In this document: piece by piece, positions 35,566 to 64,000 of the stretch
How the letters are laid out: the number at the start of each line of letters is the position of its first letter
Position numbering within the stretch: position 1 is the first letter of the stretch
Assembly (NCBI GenBank): GCA_045594665.1
Contig: JAZNYX010000053.1
Location: 5,747-69,746 of the forward strand
Source: Clostridia bacterium
Lineage (GTDB): Bacteria; Bacillota; Clostridia; UMGS1883
Length of the DNA stretch: 64,000 nt
Direction: 5' to 3'
Translations under genes and position numbers: made by a program
Notes under the pieces: generated by a model
Told to the model about the DNA's origin: nothing
What the model saw: the letters and a program-made list of their open reading frames with translations, nothing else
Database searches by the model: none

Positions 35566-35865
35566 ATGAAACTTTGGACAAATCGCAAAATATCTGTCAC
35601 ATTGCCCGATTTCTTGGTTGAGGAGATGGATAAAATTGCCTTGACACTTAATCGGTCACGGAGTGAAATCATGGCGTTGGCAGTAAAGCAGTATGTCGGT
35701 GAAAGAAAGAAAATTGAATTAAAGCAGCAAATGAAAAAGGGATATCTGGAAATGGGCGAGATAAATCTTAATCTTGCTCGGGAATCTCTGTTATCCGATG
35801 AAAACGCATGTGAAATCTACGAGAAATATTTGGGGGAAGAAAAAATCCCTTCATCGGAGGAATGA
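35566..35865 (+). CDS. mazE: Ribbon-helix-helix antitoxin (EndoAI / MazE-like)
   Basis: ISVTLPDFLVEEMDKIA...SRSEIMALAV is a CopG/RHH motif. Lies immediately upstream of mazF. Confidence 0.75.
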   Translation: MKLWTNRKISVTLPDFLVEEMDKIALTLNRSRSEIMALAVKQYVGERKKIELKQQMKKGYLEMGEINLNLARESLLSDENACEIYEKYLGEEKIPSSEE

Positions 35866-35868
35866 AAC

Positions 35869-36219
35869 TTGATTGTAAAACGCGGTGATATTTTTTATGC
35901 TGATTTAAGTCCCGTTGTAGGCTCAGAGCAGGGCGGTATAAGACCTGTATTGGTGGTTCAGAATGACGTGGGTAATAAATATAGCCCTACTGTTATTGCG
36001 GCGGCAATAACCAGTAAGATTAATAAGGCAAAGCTTCCCACCCATATTGAGCTTGACGCACAGAAGTACGGTCTTTCGCGTGACAGCGTGATACTTCTTG
36101 AACAGGTCAGGACCATTGACAAACAGCGGCTTCGGGAGAAAATCGGCAAATTAGATGAACTGCAAATGATAAAAGTTAATGATGCCATTTCCGTCAGCTT
36201 CGGATTGGTAGAAAACTGA
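35869..36219 (+). CDS. mazF: Type II toxin endoribonuclease MazF / EndoA
   Basis: [30 protein letters not shown] is a PemK family signature. TTG start with GGAGG RBS. Confidence 0.9.
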
Positions 36220-48713: not shown

Positions 48714-49322
48714 TTACAACTTCGTTGTAAATGACACAGCCTTACCCAATATACGGATATTCTTCGCCTGCTTTTTTGTATATACAATAGGTTTATACTT
48801 AGGATTTTCCGAAACTAAGGTTATGGAATCGGGTGCTTGGTAAACTCTTTTGAGTGTTGCTTCATCGTCTACCAAAACTGCGGCTATCTCGCCGTCATCA
48901 ATTGATTCCTGCTTGCGGATGAAAACCACATCGCCGTCCTTTATGCCTGCACCTGTCATGGAATCTCCGTGAACACGCAAGCAGAAGTCAGCTCCGCAGT
49001 CATCGACGGGGGAATAATATTCGTATTCCTCCGAGGCAAAAATCGGCTGACCTGCTGCAATTTCTCCAAGCAACGGCAGCTTCTTTTTGCTTATTTTCAT
49101 TGCGGCTTCAGGAAGAACATCCTCCTCCCAGCCCATCAGATACGAGGGGGTACAACCAAAAATTTTAGCCATCTCAAGCACTGTTGCGTGCTTGGGATTT
49201 TTTATTTCCCCGCTTTCATAGCGTTGCACCGTAGCTTCCTTAACGCCAAGTGCATTGGCAACGTCCAAAAGAGTCATCCCGAGTGCTGTACGCCTTTCCT
49301 TAATTCTTTCATGTAATTTCAT
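48714..49322 (-). CDS. CI/LexA-type phage repressor (XRE HTH plus S24 peptidase)
   Basis: HTH LGMTLLDVANALGVKEATVQRYESG. S24 domain with VHGDSM and a later catalytic Lys region (ATLKRV). Confidence 0.9.
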   Translation of the reverse strand: MKLHERIKERRTALGMTLLDVANALGVKEATVQRYESGEIKNPKHATVLEMAKIFGCTPSYLMGWEEDVLPEAAMKISKKKLPLLGEIAAGQPIFASEEYEYYSPVDDCGADFCLRVHGDSMTGAGIKDGDVVFIRKQESIDDGEIAAVLVDDEATLKRVYQAPDSITLVSENPKYKPIVYTKKQAKNIRILGKAVSFTTKL

Positions 49323-49379
49323 AATAATTTTCCTTTCATTAATACTTGGAAAAACTGCTTCTACAACGATTATAACACA

Positions 49380-49498
49380 ACTTACTTAAAATGCAAGAAA
49401 AATTTTTAAAAACTTACGTAAAAAGTATTGACTTTCGTCATTTCGTGTTTTATACTGACTTACGTAAAAAGTAAGAAAGTAAAAATACTTACATGAAA
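49380..49498. promoter_or_regulatory. Phage immunity region: early rightward promoter flanked by repeated operators
   Basis: TTGACT (49428-33), 17 nt, TATACT (49451-56). ACTTACGTAAAAAGTA occurs at 49412-49427 and 49458-49473. Diverged copies at 49380-49393 and 49487-49498. Confidence 0.6.
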
Positions 49499-49512
49499 GG
49501 AAAGAATTAACC

Positions 49513-49779
49513 ATGAAATATGAAGGTAAATTTTGTGTTGTGTGCGGAAGAAGAATCCCCGAACTTTCACGCCGAAAGAAAACCTGCAGTGATTTTTGCC
49601 ACCGCAGAAAAAAATGTGGCTATGCACCCTACCTTGGATATGCCAAGCTTCCCTATGATGATTTGACCGCACTCCAACAGGAGGCACACAGCAAAGGAAT
49701 GAGCTACGGCAAATATATGGCAAGTCTGTCCTCTCATGCAGAGAGCAGCAGGAAAGGAGGAGAAAGCATATGCCGATGA
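49513..49779 (+). CDS. Small phage protein with Cys4 zinc-ribbon-like N-terminus
   Basis: CVVCGRR...CSDFC. First rightward gene. Confidence 0.5.
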   Translation: MKYEGKFCVVCGRRIPELSRRKKTCSDFCHRRKKCGYAPYLGYAKLPYDDLTALQQEAHSKGMSYGKYMASLSSHAESSRKGGESICR

Positions 49780-49970
49780 TAATTCAATGTCCCTTTTACA
49801 AAATGGACAGCCATCTTAAGCTCTACTGTGAGGGATGCAGTATGAAGTTTCCCGATATTGCGGCACGGAGAGATTATATTGAAAATTATTGTGCAAACCA
49901 TATTAACTGGCAAAAATGCAGCGTGGCACACTCAATGCAGCGTTATTATGACAGAAAGGACGAAAGGTAA
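49770..49970 (+). CDS. Small Cys-rich phage protein
   Basis: Overlaps neighbours on both sides. CPFY..CEGC..C..C pattern. Confidence 0.45.
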   Translation: MPMIIQCPFYKMDSHLKLYCEGCSMKFPDIAARRDYIENYCANHINWQKCSVAHSMQRYYDRKDER

Positions 49971-50230
49971 TGAATTATAAAAATGAGATTATGCGGAGAG
50001 ATAAACGTATCGAAACCTACAAAAATACAGAAGAGGAACTTAGGGAAGAAATTACAGCTTTAAGACAGCTTCTTGATTGTGCGGCGGCAAACATTGTGCT
50101 TTTGACAAAGGAAAAAGGCGGAAAGGTTACCTTATCTAAAACCGAGGTTAGTGATGCCCTTGGTAAATATCATCTTAGTGCAAAGCGTGACAAGGACGGA
50201 AATTACGCACTGGAGATAAAAGAGGAATGA
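49970..50230 (+). CDS. Small coiled-coil phage protein
   Basis: TAATG and ATGA overlaps with neighbours. Confidence 0.45.
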   Translation: MNYKNEIMRRDKRIETYKNTEEELREEITALRQLLDCAAANIVLLTKEKGGKVTLSKTEVSDALGKYHLSAKRDKDGNYALEIKEE

Positions 50231-51654
50231 ATATAATCTGGACGCCTCAACCCAGACAAAGGGCTTTTATGGAGAGGAAGGAAACGGAAGCTCTCTACGG
50301 CGGTGCGGCAGGCGGAGGAAAAAGCGACTGTGCAATAGCCGAGGCACTAAGGCAGGTGCATATACCCCATTATCGCGGTTTGATTTTAAGAAAAACCTAC
50401 CCACAGCTTTCGGAAATGGTAGACAGAAGCCGTGAGATATACTCCCCTGCGTTTCCCGATGCCAAGTTTAATGACCAAAAGCACTGTTGGACATTTCCTT
50501 CGGGAGCGAAAATCTACTTTGGAGCCATGCAGCATACAAAGGACAGAACCAACTATCAGGGAAAACGCTACGACTTTATAGATTTTGATGAGCTGACGCA
50601 TTTTACATGGGATGAATACAGCTATCTTTTCAGCCGTAACCGTCCCAACGGCCCCGGTACACGCTGTTATATCAGGGCGCAGGCAAACCCCGGAGGAATA
50701 GGGCACGGCTGGGTGAAGGAACGTTTCATTACGCCTGCTCCGCCAATGACACCTATTTATGATGAGGTAAAGATAATGTTCCCCGACGGGAAAAGCGAGC
50801 TTCGCCGTCAAAGCAGAATTTTTGTTCCGTCAAGTGTTTTTGATAATAAAATTCTGATGCAAAATGACCCCGACTATATTACAAGGCTTGCCTCGCTTCC
50901 CGAAAATGAGAAAAAAGCACTTTTATACGGCGATTGGGACAGCTTTTCGGGACAGGTTTTTACGGAATGGAGAAACAACCCCGACGGATATGAAAACCGC
51001 AGAAATACTCACGTAATAAACCCTTTTAAAATTCCCTCCTCATGGAAAATATACCGTGGATTTGACTTTGGTTATTCACGTCCCTTTTCGGTGGGATGGT
51101 ATTGCGTGGACCATGACGGCAGGCTGTACAGGATTAAGGAGCTTTACGGATGTACAGGCACTCCCAACGAAGGTGTAAGATGGGAGCCGGGGCGGATTGC
51201 ACGTGAAATCAGGCGTATTGAAAATGATGATATTAATCTTCGCGGTAAGTATATAAACGGCATTGCTGACCCTTCCATTTTTGATGAAAGCCGCGGCGAA
51301 AGCGTAGGCAGACTGATGGAAAGGGAGGGTGTATATTTTGAAAAAGCAGACAATACCCGTATAGCAGGGAAGATGCAGCTTCATAACAGGTTAGCATTTG
51401 ATGACGAGGGTATTCCCATGCTGTACATATTTTCCACCTGCAAGCATTTTATAAGAACAGTTCCTTCGCTTGTTTACAGTCAGATTGATGTTGAGGACAT
51501 CGACACAACAGCAGAGGATCATATATATGATGAAGTCCGCTATATTGCTATGACAAATCCCATAAATCCGCCTCCCAAAAAACAGCCTCAGATAATGTAT
51601 GATCCGCTTAGTACAGATGATTACAAGCACTATAACTATTACAGATTAGGATGA
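50227..51654 (+). CDS. terL: Terminase large subunit
   Basis: Walker A GGAAGGGKSD, Walker B-like FIDFDE, C-terminal nuclease-like region. Confidence 0.88.
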   Translation: MNIIWTPQPRQRAFMERKETEALYGGAAGGGKSDCAIAEALRQVHIPHYRGLILRKTYPQLSEMVDRSREIYSPAFPDAKFNDQKHCWTFPSGAKIYFGAMQHTKDRTNYQGKRYDFIDFDELTHFTWDEYSYLFSRNRPNGPGTRCYIRAQANPGGIGHGWVKERFITPAPPMTPIYDEVKIMFPDGKSELRRQSRIFVPSSVFDNKILMQNDPDYITRLASLPENEKKALLYGDWDSFSGQVFTEWRNNPDGYENRRNTHVINPFKIPSSWKIYRGFDFGYSRPFSVGWYCVDHDGRLYRIKELYGCTGTPNEGVRWEPGRIAREIRRIENDDINLRGKYINGIADPSIFDESRGESVGRLMEREGVYFEKADNTRIAGKMQLHNRLAFDDEGIPMLYIFSTCKHFIRTVPSLVYSQIDVEDIDTTAEDHIYDEVRYIAMTNPINPPPKKQPQIMYDPLSTDDYKHYNYYRLG

Positions 51655-51658
51655 TGGA

Positions 51659-52201
51659 ATGAAAAGAGAAAAATACGACTGGAAAGCAATTAAAACCGAG
51701 TTTGTTACGGGAGAGGACTCTGCGGTAGCTCTTGCAAAAAAACACGGAATTAATAAGGCCACACTCTACCGTCATTATCAGATAGAGCGTTGGAGTGAGG
51801 CAAGGCAGGAATACAGAGAAAATGTTATGGAAAAATGTGCTGACAATGCAGCCTGCATAGCGGCAATAAAACTGGCAAAGGAAATTGATATAGCCGATAA
51901 GCTTTCCGATGTGCTAAATGAAGCAATAGAGGATAAAAAGCAGTTTTACCGATACATCGTAAAGGAAAAGAACGGAAGTGACAGCGGCGAGGAGGAACGC
52001 ATATTCGGGAAAATGGATATGCAGTCACTCAATAATGCAATAAAAGCACTTTCCGCCCTTCAGGAGATAAAATGCGTGATGTACGGAATCCTGACACCCA
52101 TTGAGGAAAGGAAGCTTCAGATAGGCAGGGAAAAGGAATCGGAGGGTGAAGTAGTAGCGGAAACGGGAGTGGTGATACTCCCGCCGGTGAATGATGATTA
52201 A
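51659..52201 (+). CDS. HTH protein resembling a terminase small subunit
   Basis: DWKAIKTEFVTGEDSAVALAKKHGINKATLYRH..ERW resembles the N-terminus of Firmicute phage small terminases. Position after TerL is atypical. Confidence 0.45.
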   Translation: MKREKYDWKAIKTEFVTGEDSAVALAKKHGINKATLYRHYQIERWSEARQEYRENVMEKCADNAACIAAIKLAKEIDIADKLSDVLNEAIEDKKQFYRYIVKEKNGSDSGEEERIFGKMDMQSLNNAIKALSALQEIKCVMYGILTPIEERKLQIGREKESEGEVVAETGVVILPPVNDD

Positions 52202-52221
52202 TTACAAAGGAGAGGAAAAAA

Positions 52222-53862
52222 TTGAAGATAAGTAGTTTTTTTGCCCCCAAAAGCAATTTTGCCTCAAAGCGAAAAATCGGGGAAAGCGAAATTGCAATGG
52301 CAGGGCAGATATTAAAGGATTATAAAAATGCCAAAGCGGTTTTAGAGGAACGAATCGTAGAAAACGAGCAGTGGTGGAAACTTCGGCATAAGGACTACAG
52401 CAAGGATAGGACAGAAAAAAAGGATGCAGGAAGCAGTAGTGCATGGCTTTTTAATGCCCTGGCAAACAAGCACGCCGATGCCATGGACAGCTTTCCCGAG
52501 GCGACGGTTCTTCCGAGGGAAAAGGATGATGAGGAGGAGGCAAAGAAGCTTTCCGCCATTATCCCTGCAATTATGGAACACAACAATTTTGAGGAGATAT
52601 ATTCAAATAACTGGTGGTATAAACTCAAGCACGGCTGTTGTGCTTACGGAGTTTTCTGGAACAGCGAGCTTGAAGGAGGACTTGGTGATATTCAGATAAA
52701 GAAAATTGACCTTTTGAATGTTTTTTGGGAGCCGGGTATTACCGATATTCAGAAAAGCAGAAATCTTTTTATTGTAAGTCTTCGCGACCAAGATGTTTTA
52801 GAATGTGAATACCCTTCCCTTCGAGGCAAGAATTTGGGAAACAGCGTGGATATCAAGGAGTACATTTATGACAGCACTGTTGACACATCAGGAAAAGTAG
52901 CGGTTGTGGACTGGTACTATAAAGTAAGGAACGAGAATGGAAAAACGCTTCTTCACTACTCTAAATTCGTGGGAGAAAATTTGCTTTTTGCCTCTGAAAA
53001 CTTAGAGGAATACGCCTACAGAGGTTGGTACGACCACGGCGAATACCCTATAGTTTTAGACAGCTTGTTTCCCGAGGAGGGAACGCCTGCAGGCTTTGGC
53101 TTTGTGGCAGTTACCAAAAATCCGCAGATGTATATTGACAAGCTTAATGATGCCATTTTAGAAAATACGCTGATGGCGTCAAAACCCAGATATTTTGCAA
53201 AAATCAGTGCAGGGGTAAATGAAAACGAATTTCTTGACTGGTCACGCCCCATAGTACATGTAGAGGGTGATATTAACGAGGAAAGACTGCGTCCCATCAG
53301 CGTGATGCAGCTTCCGCCCTCCTGTATGGAAATGCTTAGAATGAAAATAGACGAGCTTAAGGAAACAAGCTCCAACAGTGACTTTAACCGAGGTGCCGCC
53401 GTAAACGGCGTAACTGCGGCATCGGCAATAGCGGCATTGCAGGAGGCAGGAAACAAGGTCAGCCGTGATATGCTTAAGGCAACATACCGTGCCTATACCA
53501 AGATAAATTATCTGTGCATAGAGCTTATACGTCAGTTTTACACGGAGCTTAGAAGCTTCCGCATAAATAACCCTGACGGAGGTTATGAATTTACCGAGTA
53601 CAGTAATACAAATATCAGAATCCCTCAAAAGGGAGATGGGTACCGCAAAAGCGTATTTGATATTGCGGTAAAGACACAGAAGAAAAGTCCCTACAGCCGT
53701 CTTTCGCAAAATGAGCTTGCAAAGGAGCTTTTCAACATAGGTTTTTTCAATCCTCAAAATGCAATGCAGTCGCTAAGTGCTCTTGAAATCATGGATTTTG
53801 ACGGTAAAGCGGCAATTGAAGCGAAAATAAGGGAAATAGCTAACTATGAAAGGATGAATTGA
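52222..53862 (+). CDS. Portal protein
   Basis: 546 aa, directly after the terminase genes and before scaffold and capsid. TTG start with AAGGAGAGG RBS. Confidence 0.7.
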   Translation: MKISSFFAPKSNFASKRKIGESEIAMAGQILKDYKNAKAVLEERIVENEQWWKLRHKDYSKDRTEKKDAGSSSAWLFNALANKHADAMDSFPEATVLPREKDDEEEAKKLSAIIPAIMEHNNFEEIYSNNWWYKLKHGCCAYGVFWNSELEGGLGDIQIKKIDLLNVFWEPGITDIQKSRNLFIVSLRDQDVLECEYPSLRGKNLGNSVDIKEYIYDSTVDTSGKVAVVDWYYKVRNENGKTLLHYSKFVGENLLFASENLEEYAYRGWYDHGEYPIVLDSLFPEEGTPAGFGFVAVTKNPQMYIDKLNDAILENTLMASKPRYFAKISAGVNENEFLDWSRPIVHVEGDINEERLRPISVMQLPPSCMEMLRMKIDELKETSSNSDFNRGAAVNGVTAASAIAALQEAGNKVSRDMLKATYRAYTKINYLCIELIRQFYTELRSFRINNPDGGYEFTEYSNTNIRIPQKGDGYRKSVFDIAVKTQKKSPYSRLSQNELAKELFNIGFFNPQNAMQSLSALEIMDFDGKAAIEAKIREIANYERMN

Positions 53863-53863
53863 T

Positions 53864-54562
53864 ATGAAAAAACAAGAAGAAATGCTTGCAATCTCTGCCG
53901 AAAGCGCGCAGAGCGGAGATAGTAAAGAGGCTGAAAAAATGGCAGCAATCAGCCGGCTGCCCGCGGGCGAAGAAGGTCTTGCCGCCGAAGACACAAAAAA
54001 CAAAGATGATGAATTCCGCAGCCTTATTAAAGGCGAATATAAGGAGCAGTTTAATAAGGCAGTGCAGAAAATCATCACAAAGAGACTAAAGGAGGTGAAA
54101 GAAGTGAAGGGAGCATCAGAAAAAACTGCAAGAGTTATAGAAAGACTCCTTGCAGAAAACAGTTATCTCAAAAAGGAACAAACAAGAAGGGCGCACGATA
54201 CAGAGGTTAATTCTCTTGTGACTGAGTGGAAAAAGCAGGCAGAGGAAACTAAGAAGTTGTACAGTGATTTTGACCTTAAGAAGGAACTTGAAAATCCCGA
54301 ATTTAGCAGGCTTTTGAAGCTTGGCGTGAGCATGAAGACCGCTTACGAGGTTCTCAATATTGACTCCATTTTGGATAAAAACTCAAAGAATGCAGAAAAA
54401 ATGGTGGTTGATTCAATCAGACTTAAGGGAAACCGCCCTGTTGAAAACGGAAGCGAGGACGCAGGCGGAATTATTCTTTCAAGCAATGTTTCAAAGCTTA
54501 ATAAAAAGCAGAGAGCAGAGCTTGCAAAGAGAGCGGCAAAGGGAGAAAGAATCAGTTTCTGA
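53864..54562 (+). CDS. Scaffolding protein
   Basis: Highly charged, predicted helical, between portal and capsid. Confidence 0.6.
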   Translation: MKKQEEMLAISAESAQSGDSKEAEKMAAISRLPAGEEGLAAEDTKNKDDEFRSLIKGEYKEQFNKAVQKIITKRLKEVKEVKGASEKTARVIERLLAENSYLKKEQTRRAHDTEVNSLVTEWKKQAEETKKLYSDFDLKKELENPEFSRLLKLGVSMKTAYEVLNIDSILDKNSKNAEKMVVDSIRLKGNRPVENGSEDAGGIILSSNVSKLNKKQRAELAKRAAKGERISF

Positions 54563-54591
54563 AAAAGAAAGAGAAAGAAAGGATGAAGTAA

Positions 54592-55911
54592 ATGTTTAAG
54601 TTTAATTTGCAGCATTTTGCTGCAGGCAATGTTGTACATACCTCAAGCGGTATTGCAAATTCTAACACAGGTGAGGTAGCTTCCTATGGTGAAGCAGGCG
54701 GTCTTTCAAATGAAATGAAGACCTATTATTCAGACTATCTTATTGATATGGCAGAGCCCAAGCTGGTGCATGACCAGTTCGGACAGAAGTGTACTATCCC
54801 CAAGAATGGCGGTAAGACTATTGAATTTCGTAAGTACGATCCCCTTCCCAAGATGACTACACCCCTTGTAGAGGGAGTAACTCCCGACGGGCAGAAGATG
54901 GAACTGGGCGTTGTCAGGGCAGAGGTCAAGCAGTACGGTGGCTTTATTGAGCTTTCCGATATTCTTATGCTTGCGGCTATTGATAACAATCTTGTTCAGG
55001 CAACCAAGCTTTTGGGCGGTCAGGCAGGAAGAACCCTTGACGCAATCACAAGAGAGGTTCTCTGCGGCGGTACAAACGTACAGTTTGCCGAAGGGCAGGT
55101 TGCATCAAGAAGCCTTCTTACAGGCGGAAAGGAATCAGGCAATCATTATCTTACGGTTGACAGTATAAGACGTGCAGTGCGTTATATTAAGAAAATGAAT
55201 GCGGAAACGATTAACGGAAGCTATGTGGGTATTATTCACCCCGATACAGCTTACGACCTTATGAGCGATCCCAAATGGATTAACGTTAAGACATATTCCG
55301 ACCCCGAGGGTATCTATCAGGGTGAAATCGGTAAGATTGAAAACGTAAGATTCGTTGAAAGCTCCGAAGCAAAGGTAATTCACGCAGAGGACCTTTGCAA
55401 GGAAAGCAGAAATCTTACAGTTTCCTCCTACAGCACACTTTCATCTGTAGGCAAGGTGACACATGGAGAAGGAAGCTTGTACAAGCTTGTCGTAGAGGAG
55501 TCTCTTACGGAGGAAGATGCAGCAAGACTTGTGGATGCAACCATTCAGCTTGGTGTGGAAGACAGTATTGAAGTATTAAGTGTAGGCGGTGTTGATATAG
55601 AGAATAAAGCCCTCTATCTTTATGCAGAGCCTGCCAATACTCCTTCAGGTGGCGATGTTTTATACCCCGGTGAAGCGGGCTTTAAGGGTTGTGACGTTTA
55701 TGTAACCCTTATTATCGGCGATAACGCTTACGGTACTACGGAAATCTCAGGCGGCGGTTTGCAGCACATTGTAAAGCAGCTCGGCTCTGCAGGAAGTGCC
55801 GACCCCCTTAATCAGCGTGCTACAGCAGGCTGGAAGGCTACAAAGGCGGCTGTAAGACTTGTAGAACCCTACATGATTCGTATAGAAACAGCAAGCACAT
55901 TCGGTAACTAA
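54592..55911 (+). CDS. Major capsid protein
   Basis: 439 aa after the scaffold gene. N-terminal FNLQHFA motif is common in Firmicute phage head proteins. Confidence 0.75.
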   Translation: MFKFNLQHFAAGNVVHTSSGIANSNTGEVASYGEAGGLSNEMKTYYSDYLIDMAEPKLVHDQFGQKCTIPKNGGKTIEFRKYDPLPKMTTPLVEGVTPDGQKMELGVVRAEVKQYGGFIELSDILMLAAIDNNLVQATKLLGGQAGRTLDAITREVLCGGTNVQFAEGQVASRSLLTGGKESGNHYLTVDSIRRAVRYIKKMNAETINGSYVGIIHPDTAYDLMSDPKWINVKTYSDPEGIYQGEIGKIENVRFVESSEAKVIHAEDLCKESRNLTVSSYSTLSSVGKVTHGEGSLYKLVVEESLTEEDAARLVDATIQLGVEDSIEVLSVGGVDIENKALYLYAEPANTPSGGDVLYPGEAGFKGCDVYVTLIIGDNAYGTTEISGGGLQHIVKQLGSAGSADPLNQRATAGWKATKAAVRLVEPYMIRIETASTFGN

Positions 55912-55976
55912 ATTTAAAATATTCGTTCTGCGGCGGTAAAGCCGCAGAACGTAATAAAACACAGGAGGAATATTTT

Positions 55977-56258
55977 ATGGCAACTAAAAATACTTTGGAA
56001 AAAACAAAGGCAAAGGTCGTTGATGAAAATTCATTGGTGGAAATTGAGCTTTTCCGTGACAATAAGGACTACAAGGACAATGTTTTTGTGGCAGTAAACG
56101 GGGAAAGCTGTGTAATTGCCCGTGGTAAAAAGGTAAAAATCAAAAAGAAGTTTGCAGACATAATCGCTCTTTCCATGAAGCAGGATGTCAAGACTGCCCG
56201 TCTTATGGAGAGTACGTCAGATGAGTTTTTTGCCCAGGCAGCCGCAAGAAATATTTAA
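55977..56258 (+). CDS. Phage hypothetical protein (head-associated by position)
   Basis: AGGAGG RBS. 93 aa. Confidence 0.4.
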   Translation: MATKNTLEKTKAKVVDENSLVEIELFRDNKDYKDNVFVAVNGESCVIARGKKVKIKKKFADIIALSMKQDVKTARLMESTSDEFFAQAAARNI

Positions 56259-56273
56259 AGGGAGGTAGTGCCT

Positions 56274-57383
56274 ATGGCAAGCTTTAATCTCGGAAGAATA
56301 AAAGGCGATAAAGGTGATAAGGGCGATACAGGTGCAAAGGGTGACAAGGGCGATAGAGGAGAAAGAGGGGAAAAAGGAAGCGATGCTCAAACTCCCGTTT
56401 TCACAATAGGTGATACAAAGACGCTTCCTTCATCTGAGGAAGCGTATGTGGAATTAAATACAAAGGATATATTAAATCCCGTTCTCAGCTTTTCCATTCC
56501 CCGCGGTCATGACGGAAAAGACGCCGACGGCGACATGAAGTCAGCAGTGTATGATCCTGAGGGACTAAATCAGGATATATTTGCTTACGCAAGGAATCTT
56601 GCAGATGCTTGTATAAAAAAAGACGGCGGAAGGCTTTCGGGTGCTCTTGATGCAGGTGAAAATTCTCTGGAACTTCCTTGTGTGCGTAATGTGTCGGTTG
56701 TCACGTCACTTCCCGAAAGCGGAGCAAACGGCGATATCTGCATTATAGTAGAGGAGGAAAACGGCAAAAAGCTTGGCGAGTGTGCAGTTGGTACTTCATT
56801 TTTGGTAACTGAGGGAGAAACCGAGTGCGAATATATCATTATCGGAAAAAACTTTCATGGGGAAAACAGTGTGACACTTGTAAGAAAACACCTTACGGAT
56901 ATAGTCCTTCAGTTAGATACCAGTGCCCGTGTGTCATATGCTATGAGTGATACAGATGTATTCCTTGAAACAATGTATATAAACCTTTTCCCCGAAAGAA
57001 TAAGAAAGCTTCTGATGCTTACAAACATTGAAAACGGTTTTATGCGCAGGTGCTTTCCGCTCGCTTATACGGAGCTTTATTCCATGGAATATTTTTCCTC
57101 GACGGACCTGAGATGTGCCACAAAAAAGGGAACTTCCACAAAGAGCGTATACTTCACAAGAAGCGTATCCGATAGCAACAATGCCTACGGGGTGTCGGAT
57201 GTAGGAAATTTTACCACTCTGAGAAAATCTGCACAATACCCTTTAAGACCGGCAATAGTGCTTCCTTACGATACCGTGGTGGCAAACACGGAATATAATT
57301 CTTCTCCGGCAGTGAAGCTTTATGACGCGCCCTGCGGAATATATGTTTTCTCCGGCGGAAAATGGAAGGAGTGTAGGGATTGA
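56274..57383 (+). CDS. Collagen-like repeat protein (fibre or decoration)
   Basis: Nine G-X-Y triplets (GDKGDKGDTGAKGDKGDRGERGEKGSD) at 56304-56384. GGAGG RBS favours ATG 56274. Confidence 0.7.
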   Translation: MASFNLGRIKGDKGDKGDTGAKGDKGDRGERGEKGSDAQTPVFTIGDTKTLPSSEEAYVELNTKDILNPVLSFSIPRGHDGKDADGDMKSAVYDPEGLNQDIFAYARNLADACIKKDGGRLSGALDAGENSLELPCVRNVSVVTSLPESGANGDICIIVEEENGKKLGECAVGTSFLVTEGETECEYIIIGKNFHGENSVTLVRKHLTDIVLQLDTSARVSYAMSDTDVFLETMYINLFPERIRKLLMLTNIENGFMRRCFPLAYTELYSMEYFSSTDLRCATKKGTSTKSVYFTRSVSDSNNAYGVSDVGNFTTLRKSAQYPLRPAIVLPYDTVVANTEYNSSPAVKLYDAPCGIYVFSGGKWKECRD

Positions 57384-57736
57384 TGCGTACAATTAACTCT
57401 GTAATAGAGCAGACTTCTAAACTGCACCCCGACACTATTTCCGATGCTATTAAGTGCCGCTGGCTCAGCGAGCTTGACGGAAAGATAATGCGTGAAACCA
57501 TGCATAAGAATGACTTTAAGCCATATTCCTTTCCAGAAGACGGAGAAAGAGAGCTTGTGGTGGGAGAACCATACGACAACATATATGAACTGTACCTTAT
57601 TGCTATGAGCGACTTTTTCAGCGGAGAAATGGCAAACTACAGTGCATCTGCAATCTTGTTCGAGCAGGCATATTCGGAATTTCGTAAGAATTACCTGAGA
57701 AATAATATTCCTCACGGGCAAAAATTTATATATTAA
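57380..57736 (+). CDS. Phage hypothetical protein
   Basis: Overlapping start (ATGA-type) within the structural module. Confidence 0.4.
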   Translation: MMRTINSVIEQTSKLHPDTISDAIKCRWLSELDGKIMRETMHKNDFKPYSFPEDGERELVVGEPYDNIYELYLIAMSDFFSGEMANYSASAILFEQAYSEFRKNYLRNNIPHGQKFIY

Positions 57737-57748
57737 GGAGGAGTATGT

Positions 57749-59530
57749 ATGCATCTTCCCATAATTAAAGGTGGCAGCAGGTATAAAAAAAGCACCACAT
57801 ACTTCGGGGGCATTAATATGCTTCAGGATTTTTCGGAGGGTGAGCTTTGTGAGTGTAACGGAATTTCTCATTTGAGCTTTCCTGCCATTACTCAAAGACA
57901 AAAAAGCGAGTCAGTGTTTGAGTGCAATGCCCCCTCTGCCATGATTTTCGGAAAAAAAGAATGTATTGCCGCAGACGGAGGACTGTACTACGACCGCAAA
58001 AAGGTGGCTACGCTCACCCCGGGAAGAAAGAACCTTGCGATTTTAGGTGATAAAATCGCGGTTTTCCCAGATAAGATTTTTTACGATACCAAAACGGGAA
58101 GTACGGGTGACCTTCAGGGTGAGTGTAAAAGCCACGATGGCGTAACGGTAACCTTTTCCAAAAGCTCTATTAGTGTTCCCTCCGTTTACAATGAAGAAAC
58201 CATTTTGGTGGAAAGACTTTCATTTCTCAAAGACACTGACATTTTCACTTATAATTCCGTGACCTGCAAAAATGCGGAATATACCTTTTCGGGCTTTAAA
58301 CTAAAGAAAATACAAGAGCTTGCCCCTGATGTCATATTCAGGGAAAAGTGTGAAAAAAATCAGTACAGGCGTGTCGTGAGCATCCGTGAAGATGAGGAAA
58401 CAGGTAGCTTTGTGGTGGATAATGAACTCATATCCGTAAATAACAGTGTAAAAAATCTGTTTTCACAGCTGAAGAGCGGAGACGTGGTAGAAATATCGGG
58501 ATGTAAGAAATATGCAAGTAATAACAAGACGGCACAAATTGTTTCTGCATCGGCATCCGTTCTTCGGTTCGCCGATGAAACCTTTACAGAGTCAGAGGAA
58601 ACCGCCGTAATTACAATTAAGCGAAAGATTCCCGATTTTTCATGTGTGTGCAGTTATGAAAACAGACTGTGGGGCTGTGAGGGAAATACTATATACGCCT
58701 CGGCGTTGGGTGATATGACAAACTTCTTCATATACAAGAATCTATCCACCGACAGCTTCAGTGTAATGTCAAATTCTGCAGGGGATTTTACAGCCTGCGT
58801 GCCATTTGGTAACTGTTGCTTATTCTTTAAGGAGAACGGCTGTTTTAAGCTTTACGGAAACCGTCCGTCAAATTTTCAGCTTACCGAAAGCTACGGAGGC
58901 GGAGTCCTTGGTACGGATTCAAAAAGCATCGTAAGTATCGGAGGCAGAATTATATATAAGGGAAGCGGCGGAATCTACACGTTTTACGGCGGAGTACCCC
59001 AATGCATTTCTCAGAAGCTGATGGGAATTACAATGGATAACGCCGTTTCGGGAAGCGACGGAAAACGGTTCTATATAACTGCCGATACAGAGGAAGGCAG
59101 AGAAGAATTTGTCTGGGACATGGAAAGAAACTTGTGGAGCAAATCAGGAGTAAGGGATGTTATAGGTTATTCTTTCTATGGCGGAAATTTATATCGCTTG
59201 CACCCTCACGGAGTGGAAAAGCTTTTAGAGGAAACGGATGATAAAGCCGATTGGAGCATTACTCTTTGCCCATTTGACGAGGATTACCACAAAACCAAAA
59301 ATTACACAAGACTCTATATAAGCGTTCACCTTTTCGAAAACGCATACATAAACACTCAGATTAGCTGTGATAACGGGCCCTGGAGTGATGTTCACACCTG
59401 CTATGCAAATGAGAAGAAGTATTTGAATATACCCTGCGTTATAAAAAGCTGTCACAGCGTAAAGCTGAGGCTTTCGGGAAAAGGGAAGTGCCTTCTTGAA
59501 TCGATAACCAGAGAATTTTCAGTTAATTAA
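57749..59530 (+). CDS. Phage structural protein, function unknown
   Basis: 593 aa, GGAGG RBS. No motif recognised. Confidence 0.45.
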   Translation: MHLPIIKGGSRYKKSTTYFGGINMLQDFSEGELCECNGISHLSFPAITQRQKSESVFECNAPSAMIFGKKECIAADGGLYYDRKKVATLTPGRKNLAILGDKIAVFPDKIFYDTKTGSTGDLQGECKSHDGVTVTFSKSSISVPSVYNEETILVERLSFLKDTDIFTYNSVTCKNAEYTFSGFKLKKIQELAPDVIFREKCEKNQYRRVVSIREDEETGSFVVDNELISVNNSVKNLFSQLKSGDVVEISGCKKYASNNKTAQIVSASASVLRFADETFTESEETAVITIKRKIPDFSCVCSYENRLWGCEGNTIYASALGDMTNFFIYKNLSTDSFSVMSNSAGDFTACVPFGNCCLFFKENGCFKLYGNRPSNFQLTESYGGGVLGTDSKSIVSIGGRIIYKGSGGIYTFYGGVPQCISQKLMGITMDNAVSGSDGKRFYITADTEEGREEFVWDMERNLWSKSGVRDVIGYSFYGGNLYRLHPHGVEKLLEETDDKADWSITLCPFDEDYHKTKNYTRLYISVHLFENAYINTQISCDNGPWSDVHTCYANEKKYLNIPCVIKSCHSVKLRLSGKGKCLLESITREFSVN

Positions 59531-59543
59531 AGAGGTGAGAGCT

Positions 59544-59729
59544 ATGTTCATGCAATTAGCGGATTTAAACGGAAAGTCAGCAGAGGAAGCTGTGCGTATC
59601 ATAGAGGACTATCTGCGATCAAACCAAGAGCTTTTAGAGTATATATTAACACATCTTGACAGCTCCAACATTATTGAAATTGATTTAAGCAAAACAAATA
59701 TTTATAAGGGGGATGAAAATGAGCTATAA
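59544..59729 (+). CDS. Phage hypothetical protein
   Basis: AGAGGTG RBS. 61 aa. Confidence 0.35.
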   Translation: MFMQLADLNGKSAEEAVRIIEDYLRSNQELLEYILTHLDSSNIIEIDLSKTNIYKGDENEL

Positions 59730-60777
59730 CAAAGATACCGACTATCAGGCAAAAATTAATGAAGCGGTAAAAAAGGGCGACTACGAAAGTGCCGCCAAAT
59801 ATGAGCAAAGCCGAAATGAAAAGATTGACGGCGAAGGTCTCAGCACTGCAAAAACAAATAATTACAGCGGTTGGCTTGACAAGACCGATTATTCCAATGT
59901 AATACGCAGTCAGATTTCAAGCGGTGCATCAAGGAGCGATGTTGCCGATACTCTCAAAAAGAGAATCCAGAAGGCAAGCGGTACACAGGGGCTTAGTCAG
60001 TATGCCTACGACGATGTTTATGATGCTGCCGTAAGATATATAAGAGGAAGCGACTTTTCTTATGCAGAGCGTGCACCGCAGTATAGAGACAGCTACAGCG
60101 ATGACATAAGTGAGCTTATAAGAGAAATCAGAAGCATCAGGGATTTTAAATATAATCCTCAGGAGGACGAGCTTTATAAGTACTATCAGGAGCAGTATAA
60201 GCGTGAGGGAAAACGTGCAATGGCGGACCTTTTGGGAGAGCTTTCCGCAAATACCGGCGGTGTTGCTTCAAGCTATGCGGCTACGGCGGCATCACAGAGC
60301 CTTGATTATTACAATAAAAAGATGACCGATATAATCCCGGAGCTTTACAGCAAAGCCTTTGACAAATATCTTGAGGAGCTTGGAATTAAGGAAAAGCAGC
60401 TGAGCATACTGGGAGAACTTTCGGATAAGGAGTATTCAAAATATCTTGACGCCTTAAAGCAGTATAATACAGAGCGTGAATTTTCTTATGATGCCTATAT
60501 CGACAGCCTTGAAAACGAATATCGTCAGCGCGAGGAAGAGAGGGATATTCTTCGTGATGAAAGAGATTACGATCTTCAGATGCAAAAGCTTGAAGATAGC
60601 CGTCAGGGAGATAGGCAAAAAGAGGAACAGGACAAAATTGACAATGCGCTCTTAAAGTGGAAGCAAAGCGGAATTCTTGATAAGGAAAGTGCGGAAATTT
60701 TGGGACTTCCCGAGGGACTTCATACCAGCGACTACGACTATAAGAAAGCACAGCAGTATAAATTGTACTCAAGATAA
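59719..60777 (+). CDS. Phage hypothetical protein, charged and helical
   Basis: AAGGGGG RBS favours ATG 59719. Confidence 0.45.
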   Translation: MSYNKDTDYQAKINEAVKKGDYESAAKYEQSRNEKIDGEGLSTAKTNNYSGWLDKTDYSNVIRSQISSGASRSDVADTLKKRIQKASGTQGLSQYAYDDVYDAAVRYIRGSDFSYAERAPQYRDSYSDDISELIREIRSIRDFKYNPQEDELYKYYQEQYKREGKRAMADLLGELSANTGGVASSYAATAASQSLDYYNKKMTDIIPELYSKAFDKYLEELGIKEKQLSILGELSDKEYSKYLDALKQYNTEREFSYDAYIDSLENEYRQREEERDILRDERDYDLQMQKLEDSRQGDRQKEEQDKIDNALLKWKQSGILDKESAEILGLPEGLHTSDYDYKKAQQYKLYSR

Positions 60778-60812
60778 GTTTATATTATCGCCTTAATAAA
60801 GCAAAAAAAGAC

Positions 60813-60841
60813 TTGCCATAAGCGTCAAAAAAGCTTATAAT
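60813..60841 (+). promoter_or_regulatory. Sigma-A type promoter for nfnAB
   Basis: TTGCCA, 17 nt, TATAAT. Confidence 0.55.
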
Positions 60842-60873
60842 AAGTCTTATATACAGGCGAAAGGATGAACATT

Positions 60874-61716
60874 ATGTACAGGATTGCAGAAAAAGAGGTG
60901 CTTAATCCTACAGTTGTAAAAATGGTTGTTGAGGCTCCGCTTATTGCTAAAAAAGCACAGCCGGGACAATTCATTATTTTCAGAGCAAAGGAAGACAGTG
61001 AGCGTGTGCCGCTTACTATTGCCGATTACGACAGGGAACAGGGCAGTGTTACCATAATTTTTCAGATTGTGGGCGAGGCTACAATGGAGCTTAACTCCCT
61101 TAATGAGGGCGAATATATTCTGGACTTCGTAGGACCGCTCGGAACTCCCAGCAAAATTGACGGTCTTAAGAAGGTATGTGTTATCGGCGGAGGTGTAGGA
61201 TGTGCAATAGCATATCCCATTGCGAAGAAGCTTCACGAAATCGGAGCCGAGGTTCACTCGGTAACAGGTTTCAGAAATAAGGACTTAATAATCCTGGAGG
61301 ATGAATTTTCGAAAGTATCCGACGTTCTCAGGATAATGACCGATGACGGCAGCTACGGAGAAAAGGGCCTTGTTACAGAGGCACTTGAGAATCTTATCGC
61401 AGAGGGTAATGAATACGACGAGGTTATTGCCATCGGACCTCTTGTGATGATGAAATTCGTCGCTCTTACTACAAAGAAATACGGCATTAAAACCACGGTT
61501 TCCATGAACCCGATCATGGTGGACGGAACGGGCATGTGCGGTGGATGCCGTCTTACTGTAGGCGGAGAAACCAAATTTGCCTGCGTGGACGGCCCTGATT
61601 TTGACGGTCATTTAGTGGATTTTGACGAGGCTATAAGCCGCAGCGGTGTTTACAGAGAATTTGAAAACACACGCCGCGAAGAGCATTGTAACCTCTTTAA
61701 AAAGGAGGTAGAGTAA
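60874..61716 (+). CDS. nfnA: NfnA-type FAD/NAD(P)-binding, 2Fe-2S subunit (sulfide/dihydroorotate dehydrogenase-like)
   Basis: PGQFIIFR..ERVPLTIAD, GGGVGCA and the C-terminal MVDGTGMCGGCRLTVGGETKFACVDGP cluster closely resemble NfnA. Confidence 0.85.
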   Translation: MYRIAEKEVLNPTVVKMVVEAPLIAKKAQPGQFIIFRAKEDSERVPLTIADYDREQGSVTIIFQIVGEATMELNSLNEGEYILDFVGPLGTPSKIDGLKKVCVIGGGVGCAIAYPIAKKLHEIGAEVHSVTGFRNKDLIILEDEFSKVSDVLRIMTDDGSYGEKGLVTEALENLIAEGNEYDEVIAIGPLVMMKFVALTTKKYGIKTTVSMNPIMVDGTGMCGGCRLTVGGETKFACVDGPDFDGHLVDFDEAISRSGVYREFENTRREEHCNLFKKEVE

Positions 61717-61717
61717 T

Positions 61718-63109
61718 ATGCCGAATATGGATCCTAAAAAATGCCCCATGCCCTCACAAGAACCGAGCGTAAGAAAGCGTAACTTTGACGAAGTGGCAAC
61801 GGGCTACACCTACGAAATGGCAATAGAGGAAGCGAAAAGATGTCTTAATTGCAAAACCAAGCCCTGCCAGAGTAAGTGCCCCGTAGCAATTGATATTCCG
61901 AAGTTTATCGAAAAGCTTGCAAACGAGGATATCAAGGGTGCTTATGAGGTTATTTCGGAAAGCAGTGCTCTTCCGGCAGTATGCGGCAGAGTATGCCCTC
62001 AGGAAAGTCAGTGTGAAAGTGCTTGTGTTCGTGCAATAAAGGGTGAAAGCGTGGCAATCGGAAGACTTGAAAGGTTTGTAGCCGATTATTGCAGAGAGCA
62101 TTTTGAAGAAGAAATCCAAAAACCTAAGTTAAACGGACGCAGGGTTGCAATTGTGGGAGCAGGCCCCTCCGGGCTTACTGCCGCAGGAGACCTTGCAAAG
62201 CTTGGCTATGAGGTAACGGTTTTTGAGGCTCTGCATACACCGGGCGGCGTTTTGGTCTATGGTATTCCTGAATTCCGTCTTCCCAAGGCTATTGTTAAGG
62301 AAGAAATAACGAAGCTTGAGAAAATGGGCGTAAAAATTGAAACCAACATGGTTATCGGTAAGATAATAACCGTTGACGAACTGTTTGAAGAAGGCTTTGA
62401 GGCGGTATACATAGCAAGCGGTGCAGGGCTTCCCAGGTTTATGAATATTCCGGGAGAGGCACTTTGCGGAGTATATAGTGCAAACGAGTACCTTACCCGA
62501 GTAAATCTGATGAAGGCATACTTGCCCGATTCAAAAACGCCTATTAAAAAGAGCAGCCGTGTTGCAGTGGTCGGCGGAGGAAATGTTGCCATGGATGCGG
62601 CAAGAAGTGCCATGCGTCTGGGTGCCGATGAGGTTTATATAGTTTACCGCAGAGGCATGGAGGAGCTTCCGGCACGAAAGGAAGAAATTGAGCATGCCAT
62701 GGAGGAAGGAATTGTCTTTAAGACTCTTACAAACCCTGTCGAAATTTTAGGCGATGAAAAAGGCTGTGTATGCGGAATTAAATGCGTGCAAATGGAACTT
62801 GGCGAGCCTGACGAAAGCGGAAGAAGACGCCCTGTAGTTAAAGAAGGAAGCGAGTTCCTGTTAGAGCTTGATACGGTGATAATGTCCATAGGAACATCAC
62901 CCAACCCTCTTATAACTAAGACCACTCCCGGTCTTGAAACCAACCGTCATGGTTGTATTGTAACAAACGGTGATGACGGACTTACCTCCCGTGAGGGGGT
63001 ATATGCCGGTGGCGATGCCGTAACAGGTGCGGCAACCGTAATTCTTGCCATGGGTGCAGGAAAGAGTGCGGCAAAAGCCATTGATGAATACATCAAAAAC
63101 AAAAAGTGA
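61718..63109 (+). CDS. nfnB: NfnB-type NADPH-dependent glutamate synthase-like subunit
   Basis: Two 4Fe-4S motifs (CLNCKTKPCQSKCP, CGRVCPQESQCESAC), VAIVGAGPSG and VVGGGNVAMD dinucleotide folds. Confidence 0.88.
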   Translation: MPNMDPKKCPMPSQEPSVRKRNFDEVATGYTYEMAIEEAKRCLNCKTKPCQSKCPVAIDIPKFIEKLANEDIKGAYEVISESSALPAVCGRVCPQESQCESACVRAIKGESVAIGRLERFVADYCREHFEEEIQKPKLNGRRVAIVGAGPSGLTAAGDLAKLGYEVTVFEALHTPGGVLVYGIPEFRLPKAIVKEEITKLEKMGVKIETNMVIGKIITVDELFEEGFEAVYIASGAGLPRFMNIPGEALCGVYSANEYLTRVNLMKAYLPDSKTPIKKSSRVAVVGGGNVAMDAARSAMRLGADEVYIVYRRGMEELPARKEEIEHAMEEGIVFKTLTNPVEILGDEKGCVCGIKCVQMELGEPDESGRRRPVVKEGSEFLLELDTVIMSIGTSPNPLITKTTPGLETNRHGCIVTNGDDGLTSREGVYAGGDAVTGAATVILAMGAGKSAAKAIDEYIKNKK

Positions 63110-63127
63110 ATTTAAATTAAAAATAAG

Positions 63128-63169
63128 AATCCCTCATGAAACCACTCAGTGGTTTTATGGGGGATTTTT
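63128..63169 (+). terminator. Intrinsic terminator after nfnB
   Basis: AATCCCTCATGAAACCAC / GTGGTTTTATGGGGGATT followed by TTTT. Confidence 0.7.
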
Positions 63170-63185
63170 AGTTAGGAGAAGTGAA

Positions 63186-64000
63186 ATGAACAGTATTACA
63201 ATAAATATAAACGGGCAATTTATTAAGAAATCCACGAAAAACGCAGGGGCGGCAGGAAGTGCAAATTCTCGTGAGTTGAAATTTATATTTGACAAAAGCT
63301 GGGAAGGATTCGCAAAGAGAGTTATCTGGCGTGACAGCTTCGGAGAAAATGAAACCTCCGTCATTCTGACTCCGCAAATTGCATCCGAAACTTTGGAATA
63401 TTCCTCATATATTCCCCAGGAAGCCACTACAAAAACAGGCTGGTGCAGCTTCACAGTAGAGGGATATTACACAGCCTCGCCCGACAAGGTTATGATGAGT
63501 GTGCGCGATTGCCTTTTCGTTTCCCATGCAGAGGGAGAGGCAAATATTCCTCCCGTAACAAAGAGCGAGGCAATGCAGCTTCAAAGTGAAATTGAGGAAA
63601 TTATGCCAAAGGTAAACGACCTGATGGAAAAGACCAAAGGTGAAGTATCAGCACTTTCGCAAAGGCTGCTTTTGTGGGAGGAATATAACTCAAAAACTCA
63701 TTATGAGGCAGGTAACAAAGTTACTTTTAACGGCTCTTCCTTTGTATGCAGACAAAATTGCATCGGGGTATCGCCTGAAAATGAAGAATTCTGGCTTATG
63801 ATAGCCGCCCGCGGATATCGGGGAAGTAAAGGAAATCAAGGCCCTCAAGGAATCCGCGGAGAAGTGGGCGAAAAAGGTGAAAAGGGTGATAAAGGCGATA
63901 AAGGAGACCAAGGCGAAAGGGGAGAACGGGGTCTAAACGGCAGCGTTGTTCCCGCAAACGGATTTTACAGCTTCAGTGTTGATGAAAACGGTGACTTATG
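63186..64000 (+). CDS. Tail fibre / receptor-binding-like protein with collagen-like repeats (3' end outside window; not in the ORF track)
   Basis: My own translation from ATG 63186 (AGGAGA RBS) has no stop to the window end. Features: BppU-like N-terminus, a CBM5/12-like YEAGNKVTFNGSSFVCRQ...EFW motif, and 14 G-X-Y triplets at 63813-63938. Confidence 0.7.
   Translation, partial: MNSITININGQFIKKSTKNAGAAGSANSRELKFIFDKSWEGFAKRVIWRDSFGENETSVILTPQIASETLEYSSYIPQEATTKTGWCSFTVEGYYTASPDKVMMSVRDCLFVSHAEGEANIPPVTKSEAMQLQSEIEEIMPKVNDLMEKTKGEVSALSQRLLLWEEYNSKTHYEAGNKVTFNGSSFVCRQNCIGVSPENEEFWLMIAARGYRGSKGNQGPQGIRGEVGEKGEKGDKGDKGDQGERGERGLNGSVVPANGFYSFSVDENGDL

Follow-up and report, generated by a model that had tools for sequence, protein, structure and literature searches.

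The closest described counterpart of the locus treated here is the gene transfer agent (GTA) of Faecalibacterium prausnitzii, FpGTA, a podovirus-like particle whose 40-nm capsids carry ~8.5-9 kb of random host DNA (Borodovich et al., Nat Commun 2026, PMC12946183). FpGTA is encoded by two operons and has no replication genes. Operon I (10.5 kb) features a small terminase (TerS) without a DNA-binding domain, the large terminase (TerL), the portal, the scaffold, the capsid and conserved hypothetical proteins, and operon II (5.5 kb), which is located 125 kb from operon I, features the fibre, a receptor-binding protein (RBP), a holin and an endolysin (PMC12946183). In the proteomics table of FpGTA, the capsid belongs to the N4-gp56 family, Prp is named, the nozzle has PDB 8eap as its match, and a protein annotated as 'TolA', whose gene closes operon I, is abundant (PMC12946183). 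The window analyzed here is a 64,000-nucleotide stretch of a Clostridia bacterium (contig JAZNYX010000053.1, positions 5,747 to 69,746), in which nfnA and nfnB, the genes of a predicted electron-bifurcating transhydrogenase, lie between a phage structural gene and a collagen-like tail fibre gene, as an earlier note on this DNA had described and as PHROG and Pfam matches confirm. The comparisons suggest that nfnAB is probably a host-type operon that lies between operons I and II of a domesticated element, one that resembles FpGTA and derives from a podovirus. The surrounding phage-like genes are most likely a chromosome-bound, GTA-like particle cluster and not an infectious virus, and nfnAB probably belongs to the resident genes of the host rather than to viral metabolic genes.

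The assignment of the two open reading frames (ORFs) to NfnA and NfnB, which the earlier note had made, is borne out by family models, alignments to solved structures and cofactor motifs. Both genes are intact, lie on the plus strand and are separated by 1 nt. NfnA scores 411 bits against NCBIfam PRK06222 (cutoff 220) and aligns end to end with the small subunit of P. furiosus NfnI, 5JCA_S, with 319 bits. This alignment reveals that NfnA keeps the FAD motif RVPLTIAD and the Asp/Cys3 [2Fe-2S] motif DGTGMCGxCR...FACVDGP, the first part of which reads DGTGMCGGCR in the window. NfnB scores 591 bits against TIGR01316 (cutoff 472), features the Pfam domains Fer4_20 and Pyr_redox_2, and aligns over residues 6-460 with T. 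maritima NfnB, 4YLF_B, with 564 bits; both cysteine clusters, CxxCxxxxCxxxCP and CGRVCPQExQCExxC, and both GxGxxG Rossmann motifs are kept. NfnA is accordingly predicted to be a PyrK/FNR-type small subunit and NfnB a GltD-like large subunit. The window pair shares both subunits, the gene adjacency and every cofactor motif with the NfnAB (NfnI) enzymes of T. maritima (4YLF) and P. furiosus (5JCA), and the sole difference is the genomic location. NfnB is 72-81% identical to the chromosomal copies of related genera, and no sequence feature sets the window copy apart. The pair is read as an ordinary host-type enzyme with a predicted electron-bifurcating transhydrogenase function. Exact look-ups of the window NfnA and NfnB sequences matched no record.

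The nfnAB genes feature a promoter and an intrinsic terminator of their own, both of which had been recognized in the window earlier. The promoter, TTGCCA-17-TATAAT, is the top-scoring sigma-70-like site between 48500 and 64000, with 11 of 12 matches. Among the 13 carriers that were compared in detail for their spacers, all have a CTTGnnn-17-TATAAT element before nfnA, in which the -10 TATAAT is invariant and the surrounding spacer cannot be aligned. RNA folding determined that the terminator hairpin has a free energy of -31 kcal/mol (z = -6.2; 0 of 200 shuffled sequences fold as well) and that it extends slightly beyond the limits first given for it, 63128-63169. A consensus terminator scan did not pick up this terminator, probably since the stem extends into the T run. 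A strong hairpin with a T run follows nfnB in 13/13 carriers, differs in sequence from carrier to carrier and ends 15-25 nt before the ribosome-binding site (RBS) of the fibre gene. Because promoter and terminator are kept in every one of these carriers despite diverged spacers, nfnAB is a conserved, insulated transcription unit, and the 1-nt gap, with a promoter before and a terminator after the pair, indicates that nfnA and nfnB would be co-transcribed as a single unit.

Morons of lambdoid prophages are promoter-gene-terminator units inserted between late genes. The earlier note had likened nfnAB to this layout, and the anatomy holds in that nfnAB lies with its own promoter and terminator between two late-type genes, both phage-derived and on the same strand, and in that it is absent from related elements. 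It differs from lambdoid morons in that its composition is like that of its neighbours and of the host, that the cargo is a core two-subunit redox enzyme and not an accessory or fitness factor, and that the carrier is probably no infectious phage. The GC content of nfnAB is 0.46-0.47 compared with 0.43-0.46 for its neighbours, and its relative synonymous codon usage (RSCU) correlates with r = 0.88 both to the flanks and to the host, so that the distinct composition typical of a moron, for which the earlier note had suggested a comparison with the flanking phage genes, is not found in either GC or RSCU.

The order head module, 354-aa protein, nfnA, nfnB and fibre recurs in at least 17 independent loci of different species, which come from reference metagenome-assembled genomes (MAGs), metagenomes and read-archive assemblies. 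The nfnAB layout is seen in L006-L010, L012, L013, L015, L022, L088-L091, L094, L096-L098 and L100. Since the same gene order is found in so many independent loci, the position of the head genes beside nfnAB is no chance juxtaposition. Across the nfnAB-carrying loci the structural proteins fall to 42-50% identity and NfnB stays at 80-97%. The pairwise distances of operon I correlate with those of NfnAB (r = 0.96, Mantel p ~0.0005) and with those of the fibre (r = 0.95), and these correlations indicate that operon I, nfnAB and the fibre travelled together. The embedded NfnAB copies form one clade in 100 of 100 neighbour-joining bootstraps among 45 Oscillospirales copies. About 70 relatives in which no head or tail genes flank nfnAB have the operon in unrelated surroundings and share no flank with the window, so that a chromosomal nfnAB at this same position without phage genes, which the earlier note had named as the finding that would overturn its reading, did not turn up. 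The nearest relative without flanking head genes, L011, features a GH25-LysM endolysin and a holin (1485-2852) 6 kb upstream of nfnAB, amid metabolic genes, and this pair may be a separate lysis cluster. A single nfnB locus was found in each of seven carrier MAGs versus two in a closed non-carrier genome (best 80 of 482 matches), which hints that the embedded nfnAB may be the only copy of its genome.

The phage-like block is ~18 kb long including nfnAB and extends from 48714 to ~3.6 kb past the end of the window. The features are collected in Table 1.

Table 1. Features of nfnAB and of the phage-like block around it, in window positions.
Feature	Position	Strand	Basis or remark
Repressor with XRE-type helix-turn-helix (HTH) and peptidase S24 domains, LexA/CI type	48714-49322	-	Pfam HTH_3 and Peptidase_S24; phrog_4 transcriptional repressor, E = 1e-47
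Divergent control region	49323-49512		Promoter TTGACT-17-TATACT at 49428-49456 (+); promoter scan, 10/12
ACTTACGTAAAAAGTA boxes flanking the TTGACT-17-TATACT promoter	49412-49427, 49458-49473		Degenerate third box near 49487
Three small conserved ORFs	49513-50230	+	Two Cys-rich ORFs of 88 and 66 aa; one coiled-coil ORF of 86 aa that overlaps the terL start
Large terminase (TerL)	50227-51654	+	phrog_979, E = 2e-61; Pfam Terminase_6N in homologs
180-aa protein, N-terminus resembling small-terminase HTH	51659-52201	+	phrog_1206, E = 4e-9, residues 2-55
Portal, P22/SU10 type	52222-53862	+	Pfam P22_portal, E = 3e-28; phrog_156, E = 5e-80
Scaffold-position protein	53864-54562	+	phrog_13908, E = 3e-42; between portal and capsid
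Major capsid protein, N4-gp56 family	54592-55911	+	TIGR04387, 301 bits (cutoff 60); phrog_1357, E = 1e-81
Three virion-module genes	55977-57736	+	93 aa; 371 aa, collagen-repeat/DUF6273; 118 aa; order kept in all loci
Tail nozzle, podovirus type, 593 aa	57749-59530	+	AlphaFold model and Foldseek
64-aa ORF and 354-aa all-helical protein closing operon I	59535-60777	+	354-aa gene at 59713-60777, upstream neighbour of nfnA
nfnAB promoter TTGCCA-17-TATAAT	60813-60841	+	Promoter scan and carrier comparison
nfnA, FAD/[2Fe-2S] small subunit	60865-61716	+	283 aa; PRK06222, 5JCA_S
nfnB, large subunit with two [4Fe-4S], FAD and NADPH site	61718-63109	+	463 aa; TIGR01316, 4YLF_B
nfnAB intrinsic terminator	63124-63170	+	22-bp hairpin, RNA folding; ends ~4 nt upstream of the fibre gene RBS
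Fibre gene RBS, AGGAGA	63175-63180	+	
Collagen-like tail fibre gene, 5' part, first of operon II	63186-64000, runs off the window	+	Pfam Collagen; phrog_5073, E = 2e-22

The window block matches FpGTA in content, order and folds, and the link is drawn from protein family, gene order and fold. The N4-gp56 capsid is common to both, as the capsid of FpGTA, RCH50849.1, bears the NCBI name of the family TIGR04387 that the window capsid matches. A nozzle like that of 8eap is predicted at the equivalent position. The AlphaFold model of the window nozzle (predicted local distance difference test score, pLDDT, 88; predicted template modelling score 0.77) has podovirus nozzles as its best Foldseek matches, including P22 gp10, 8eap_D, with E = 1e-12, and sequence-only PDB searches with the nozzle, the capsid and the portal were uninformative. 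Operon I ends with a long-helix protein in the window and with the 'TolA'-like protein in FpGTA. This 354-aa protein has 201 homologs and its model (pLDDT 84) features a 133-residue helix; a fold search with this protein gave no significant match. Prp, which FpGTA has between portal and capsid, is also found in L105 and L106 and was not called in the window. The operon II of FpGTA, with fibre, RBP, holin and endolysin, is matched by the relatives L009, L088, L098 and L100. Both elements are without replication and integration genes and both are found in gut anaerobes of the Oscillospirales. There are also some differences. The two operons of FpGTA are far apart, whereas here they are contiguous and separated by nfnAB alone; the fibre of FpGTA is BppU-like, whereas here it is collagen-like; and the window features an S24 repressor and conserved operators at the left end, whereas the words repressor and LexA are absent from the main text on FpGTA (PMC12946183).

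The genes of operon II downstream of the fibre were read from the relatives L008, L009, L015, L022, L088-L091, L098 and L100, in which the fibre measures 345-504 aa and precedes a variable protein of 229-302 aa, after which come a holin and an Amidase_2 endolysin; L098 and L100 have an additional 83-92-aa ORF. In L008 and L009 the operon is followed by convergent host genes for an ABC-3 transporter, Fur and cardiolipin synthase. Between L009 (12994-13791) and L008 (12994-13734), the gene that follows the fibre has only 37% identity, whereas its neighbours have 85-91%, and its product ranges from 229 to 302 aa across loci; this variation resembles what would be expected of a swapped or diversifying receptor-binding protein.

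The block also agrees with the working criteria by which a second study recognizes GTAs, and with two features of the generic definition of a GTA, namely chromosomal particle genes and the lack of functions for moving or copying itself. Genes for TerL, portal, scaffold, capsid, nozzle, fibre, holin and endolysin are present, and no integrase, excisionase or replication domain was found in any block gene of the window or of more than 10 relatives. The two block ends share no direct (att) repeats, and no tRNA or Rfam elements are found at them. With RcGTA, BaGTA, VSH-1 and PBSX of B. subtilis the block shares chromosomal phage-derived particle genes, the lack of self-replication, lysis genes as a separate unit and, probably, vertical inheritance and regulation that is host- or SOS-linked. 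It differs from them in that they are siphovirus- or myovirus-like, whereas the window block is podovirus-like and has a housekeeping operon inside the cluster. A further possible parallel, glt/oxd genes flanking the Brachyspira VSH-1 GTA, was considered and dropped, as the sole 'glt' match in PMC2897892 is citrate synthase. The presence of a terminase, a portal and a capsid led to the rejection of a tailocin as the identity of the block, and the absence of a protein-primed polymerase to that of a small phi29-like phage.

Selection and composition studies support the view that the block is maintained on the chromosome. The ratio of nonsynonymous to synonymous substitution (dN/dS) is 0.03-0.28 for every phage-like gene, 0.03-0.05 for TerL and portal, 0.03-0.09 for nfnA and 0.03-0.07 for nfnB. 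Purifying selection on the block genes holds across lineages in which dS is saturated, and every gene is intact. The phage-like genes match ordinary host genes in GC content, in GC content at third codon positions (GC3) and in RSCU (r = 0.91). In the close species group, the dS of the adjacent host genes is 0.38-0.44 for the tRNA synthetase, 0.60-0.67 for PGA_cap and 0.55 for YjeF, and the element genes, with 0.13-0.66 (two tiny ORFs excepted), and nfnAB, with 0.37-0.66, lie at the same level. This equality argues for descent of the block with the chromosome.

Relatives without nfnAB bracket the arrangement. L106 and L099, whose TerL is 82% identical, feature the same repressor, control region and operon I, and host genes follow directly after the terminal helical protein, with no nfnAB, fibre or lysis genes at that place. 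Their operon-I-only state compares with the separated operons of FpGTA. In L099 (2726-10001) the portal, the nozzle, the collagen protein and the 118-aa protein give truncated matches, and the right flank is unlike that of the near-identical sister L106, which could be pseudogenisation or a poor or chimeric scaffold. Among the genuine phage relatives, the faecal virome scaffold L101 has the holin directly after the helical protein, L107 features an integrase and a 2,711-aa protein, and L108-L110 have the local order 120 aa, nozzle, 53 aa, 455 aa and then a giant polyvalent protein of 1,900-3,840 aa. Giant proteins of this size class are located at L107:1773-9908, L109:13514-21941, L110:9907-15672 and L102:13404-21461; that of L109 has SNF2/ResIII helicase and LPD38 domains, and the reduced elements lost the giant gene. 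nfnAB is absent from L101, L106, L099 and L108-L110, and the genuine phage relatives are without it. A tree of portal, capsid and nozzle determined that the reduced elements are monophyletic (100/100) and that the operon-I-only type branches first. On the basis of this tree and of the bracketing relatives, the block appears to be a reduced derivative of a podophage lineage, and nfnAB probably reached the joint between operons I and II once.

The viral records show the same boundary. No relative of the window NfnB was found among the 2.9 million viral contigs of IMG/VR, and three of the four IMG/VR records of the element (L001-L003) end exactly at the stop codon before nfnA. Provirus callers take nfnA as the host boundary, and the viral catalogues hold operon I and miss operon II. 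Megablast of 50000-64000 against sequenced phages gave no match, and literature searches that combined nfnAB with prophage and NfnB with auxiliary metabolic gene (AMG) returned nothing relevant.

The earlier note had offered nfnAB as an unusual phage-borne redox AMG, a reading by which a transmissible temperate or recently defective podophage moves and expresses nfnAB as a moron or AMG. The textbook moron anatomy in all carriers fits such a phage, as do the full and intact head, tail, fibre and lysis set with its CI-like repressor, the variation of the host flanks between distant carriers and a TerL with 78% identity to its counterpart in a genuine integrase-bearing prophage; the embedded NfnAB also forms its own clade, and its absence from distant relatives implies that it was acquired once. 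The block nevertheless lacks the integrase, excisionase, replication genes and att repeats that such a phage would use, its codon usage is host-like, its dS is in step with that of the neighbouring host genes and its content is GTA-like. The homologs are all located on chromosomal contigs of up to 400 kb with no free ~18-kb genome seen, IMG/VR holds no NfnB relative and its provirus calls stop before nfnA, and each carrier genome has one nfnB locus (best 80 of 482 matches). A phage-borne AMG is considered unlikely on these grounds. The domestication evidence serves equally well for particles that are a PBSX-like device for killing or altruistic lysis and not for DNA delivery, and nfnAB would in this case, too, be a host operon nested in the cluster. 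Borodovich et al. keep this option open for FpGTA (PMC12946183), and the hypervariable post-fibre gene (37% versus 85-91% for its neighbours in L008/L009) fits strain-specific targeting. The dN/dS of 0.03-0.05 for TerL and portal, however, argues that DNA packaging matters, and tailocin-type killing would require a contractile sheath, which a short-tailed particle lacks, so that a killing device is given a low probability.

The other possibility that the earlier note had raised, a chromosomal nfnAB flanked by remnants of two separate phage-derived segments, came closer to the truth in that nfnAB is indeed read as chromosomal and flanked by two such segments. It fails in that the segments are maintained operons and not remnants, and that they belong to one phage-derived system and not to two unrelated insertions. 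Inert, decaying flanks would agree with the lack of integrase and replication genes, with the host-like composition and with L099, in which head-gene matches are truncated and the right half is missing, but all genes are intact and under purifying selection across dS-saturated lineages, the control region is nearly invariant, and the flanks co-diverge (r = 0.95) and jointly make up one complete particle-plus-lysis set, which leaves this explanation very improbable. A capsid-forming phage satellite, similar to the capsid-forming phage-inducible chromosomal islands (cf-PICIs), with nfnAB as cargo, is less probable again. The small size, the own terminase, portal and capsid, and the overlap of GTA search criteria with satellites that others have noted would suit it, but satellites integrate, excise and replicate, functions that are missing here, and the block has its own nozzle, fibre, holin and endolysin and would need no helper tail or lysis. 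Several points weigh against a host operon nested in a domesticated element. Co-divergence with the host was seen within one close species group only, the host genes on both sides of the block differ between distant carriers, as a mobile unit would likewise predict, and the close relative L092 has a different left flank. The nfnAB-containing layout forms one group with only 54/100 support in the tree of portal, capsid and nozzle, and the single-copy count comes from incomplete MAGs and from the best 80 of 482 matches. There is a small chance that the entire ~18-kb block, with nfnAB in it, is mobile among Oscillospirales or was so until recently and that the nfnAB unit gates the expression of fibre and lysis genes through antitermination at the nfnB terminator.

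For a host operon nested in a domesticated element, a regulatory scheme can be proposed. The S24 repressor features the LexA/CI autocleavage signature, which is read from its sequence as an Ala-Gly cleavage site (EIAAGQP), a GDSM serine motif and a downstream Lys-Arg within the LKR lysine motif. The boxes that flank the operon I promoter are candidate repressor operators; boxes and promoter are almost unchanged in L089, L092, L098, L100, L105 and L106, and thus across both element types, although the structural proteins are only ~50% identical. The repressor would silence operon I in uninduced cells, and nfnAB would then be expressed alone from its own constitutive promoter, while the nfnB terminator would keep housekeeping transcription out of the fibre, holin and endolysin genes. 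SOS-triggered cleavage of the repressor may derepress operon I, and induced transcription would run from the operon I promoter through the head genes into nfnAB, as no terminator separates operon I from the nfnA promoter in most carriers. The spacer between the nfnB terminator and the fibre RBS is too short for a promoter, so that expression of operon II would need read-through or antitermination at the nfnB terminator, or a start inside nfnB. A dedicated operon II promoter in the 3' end of nfnB was considered and rejected, as the weak site at -176 is found in 9/13 loci and lies in coding sequence, where it is inseparable from protein constraint. The block itself would not drive its integration, excision or replication and would be inherited with the chromosome. 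Particle production, packaging of random DNA and use of nfnAB as the working copy of the genome would complete the best explanation.

Some features of the element vary between lineages or have no assigned family. The three small ORFs after the control region are kept in all element loci and have no PHROG match; they are candidates for regulators or for a TerS-like protein without a DNA-binding domain. The homolog of the 180-aa protein after TerL is a 93-aa protein without the HTH-like N-terminus in L098 (2511-2792) and L100 (2516-2797), a loss that could bear on packaging specificity. The window capsid features an insertion of ~90 residues (residues ~267-356) that is absent from the 341-aa capsids of L098 and L100 as well as from several IMG/VR relatives and that may be a surface or decoration domain of the sub-lineage of the window.

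The window to the left of 48649 consists of housekeeping genes, which include rpoB, rpoC, EF-G, EF-Tu, YjeF, MazEF, an aminotransferase, glmS, a MiaB-like gene, a tRNA synthetase and PGA_cap. The MazE-like (ribbon-helix-helix, RHH) and PemK-MazF toxin-antitoxin pair (35566-36219) lies directly after the YjeF gene, and its toxin is 100% identical in L092. The S24 repressor is the left end in every locus that shows this end, beside four different host flanks, and in L105 the left flank is the rimP-nusA-infB operon. In L092, whose TerL is 97% identical and which was compared over L092:2306-2450, the repressor comes directly after the counterpart of a 129-aa gene whose end in the window is 36617. 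The 12.1-kb window segment 36618-48714, with the aminotransferase, Lrp, glmS, methyltransferase, NUDIX, MiaB-like, HD, tRNA synthetase and PGA_cap genes, is missing at that spot, and the breakpoint falls at the left edge of the element. In the close relative L090 an IS200-like (Y1_Tnp) transposase gene (2060-2551) lies between PGA_cap and the repressor.

With a domesticated particle cluster as the carrier, calling NfnAB an AMG would be a tempting false positive, and provirus callers already split the element at nfnA. Should the less probable mobile block be real, it would be the first virus- or GTA-borne electron-bifurcating transhydrogenase, and antitermination would be required for particle release. 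The terminator that lies right before the lysis module offers a hypothesis for how the lysis genes may stay silent beside a constitutive housekeeping operon. The locus unites the two operons and their likely regulator, the S24 repressor and its conserved operators, in a single 18-kb block. This block is a compact set of genes on which a kind of GTA known only since 2026 could be tested, and it suggests that the Oscillospirales of gut and rumen harbour a large branch of uncultured FpGTA-like elements.

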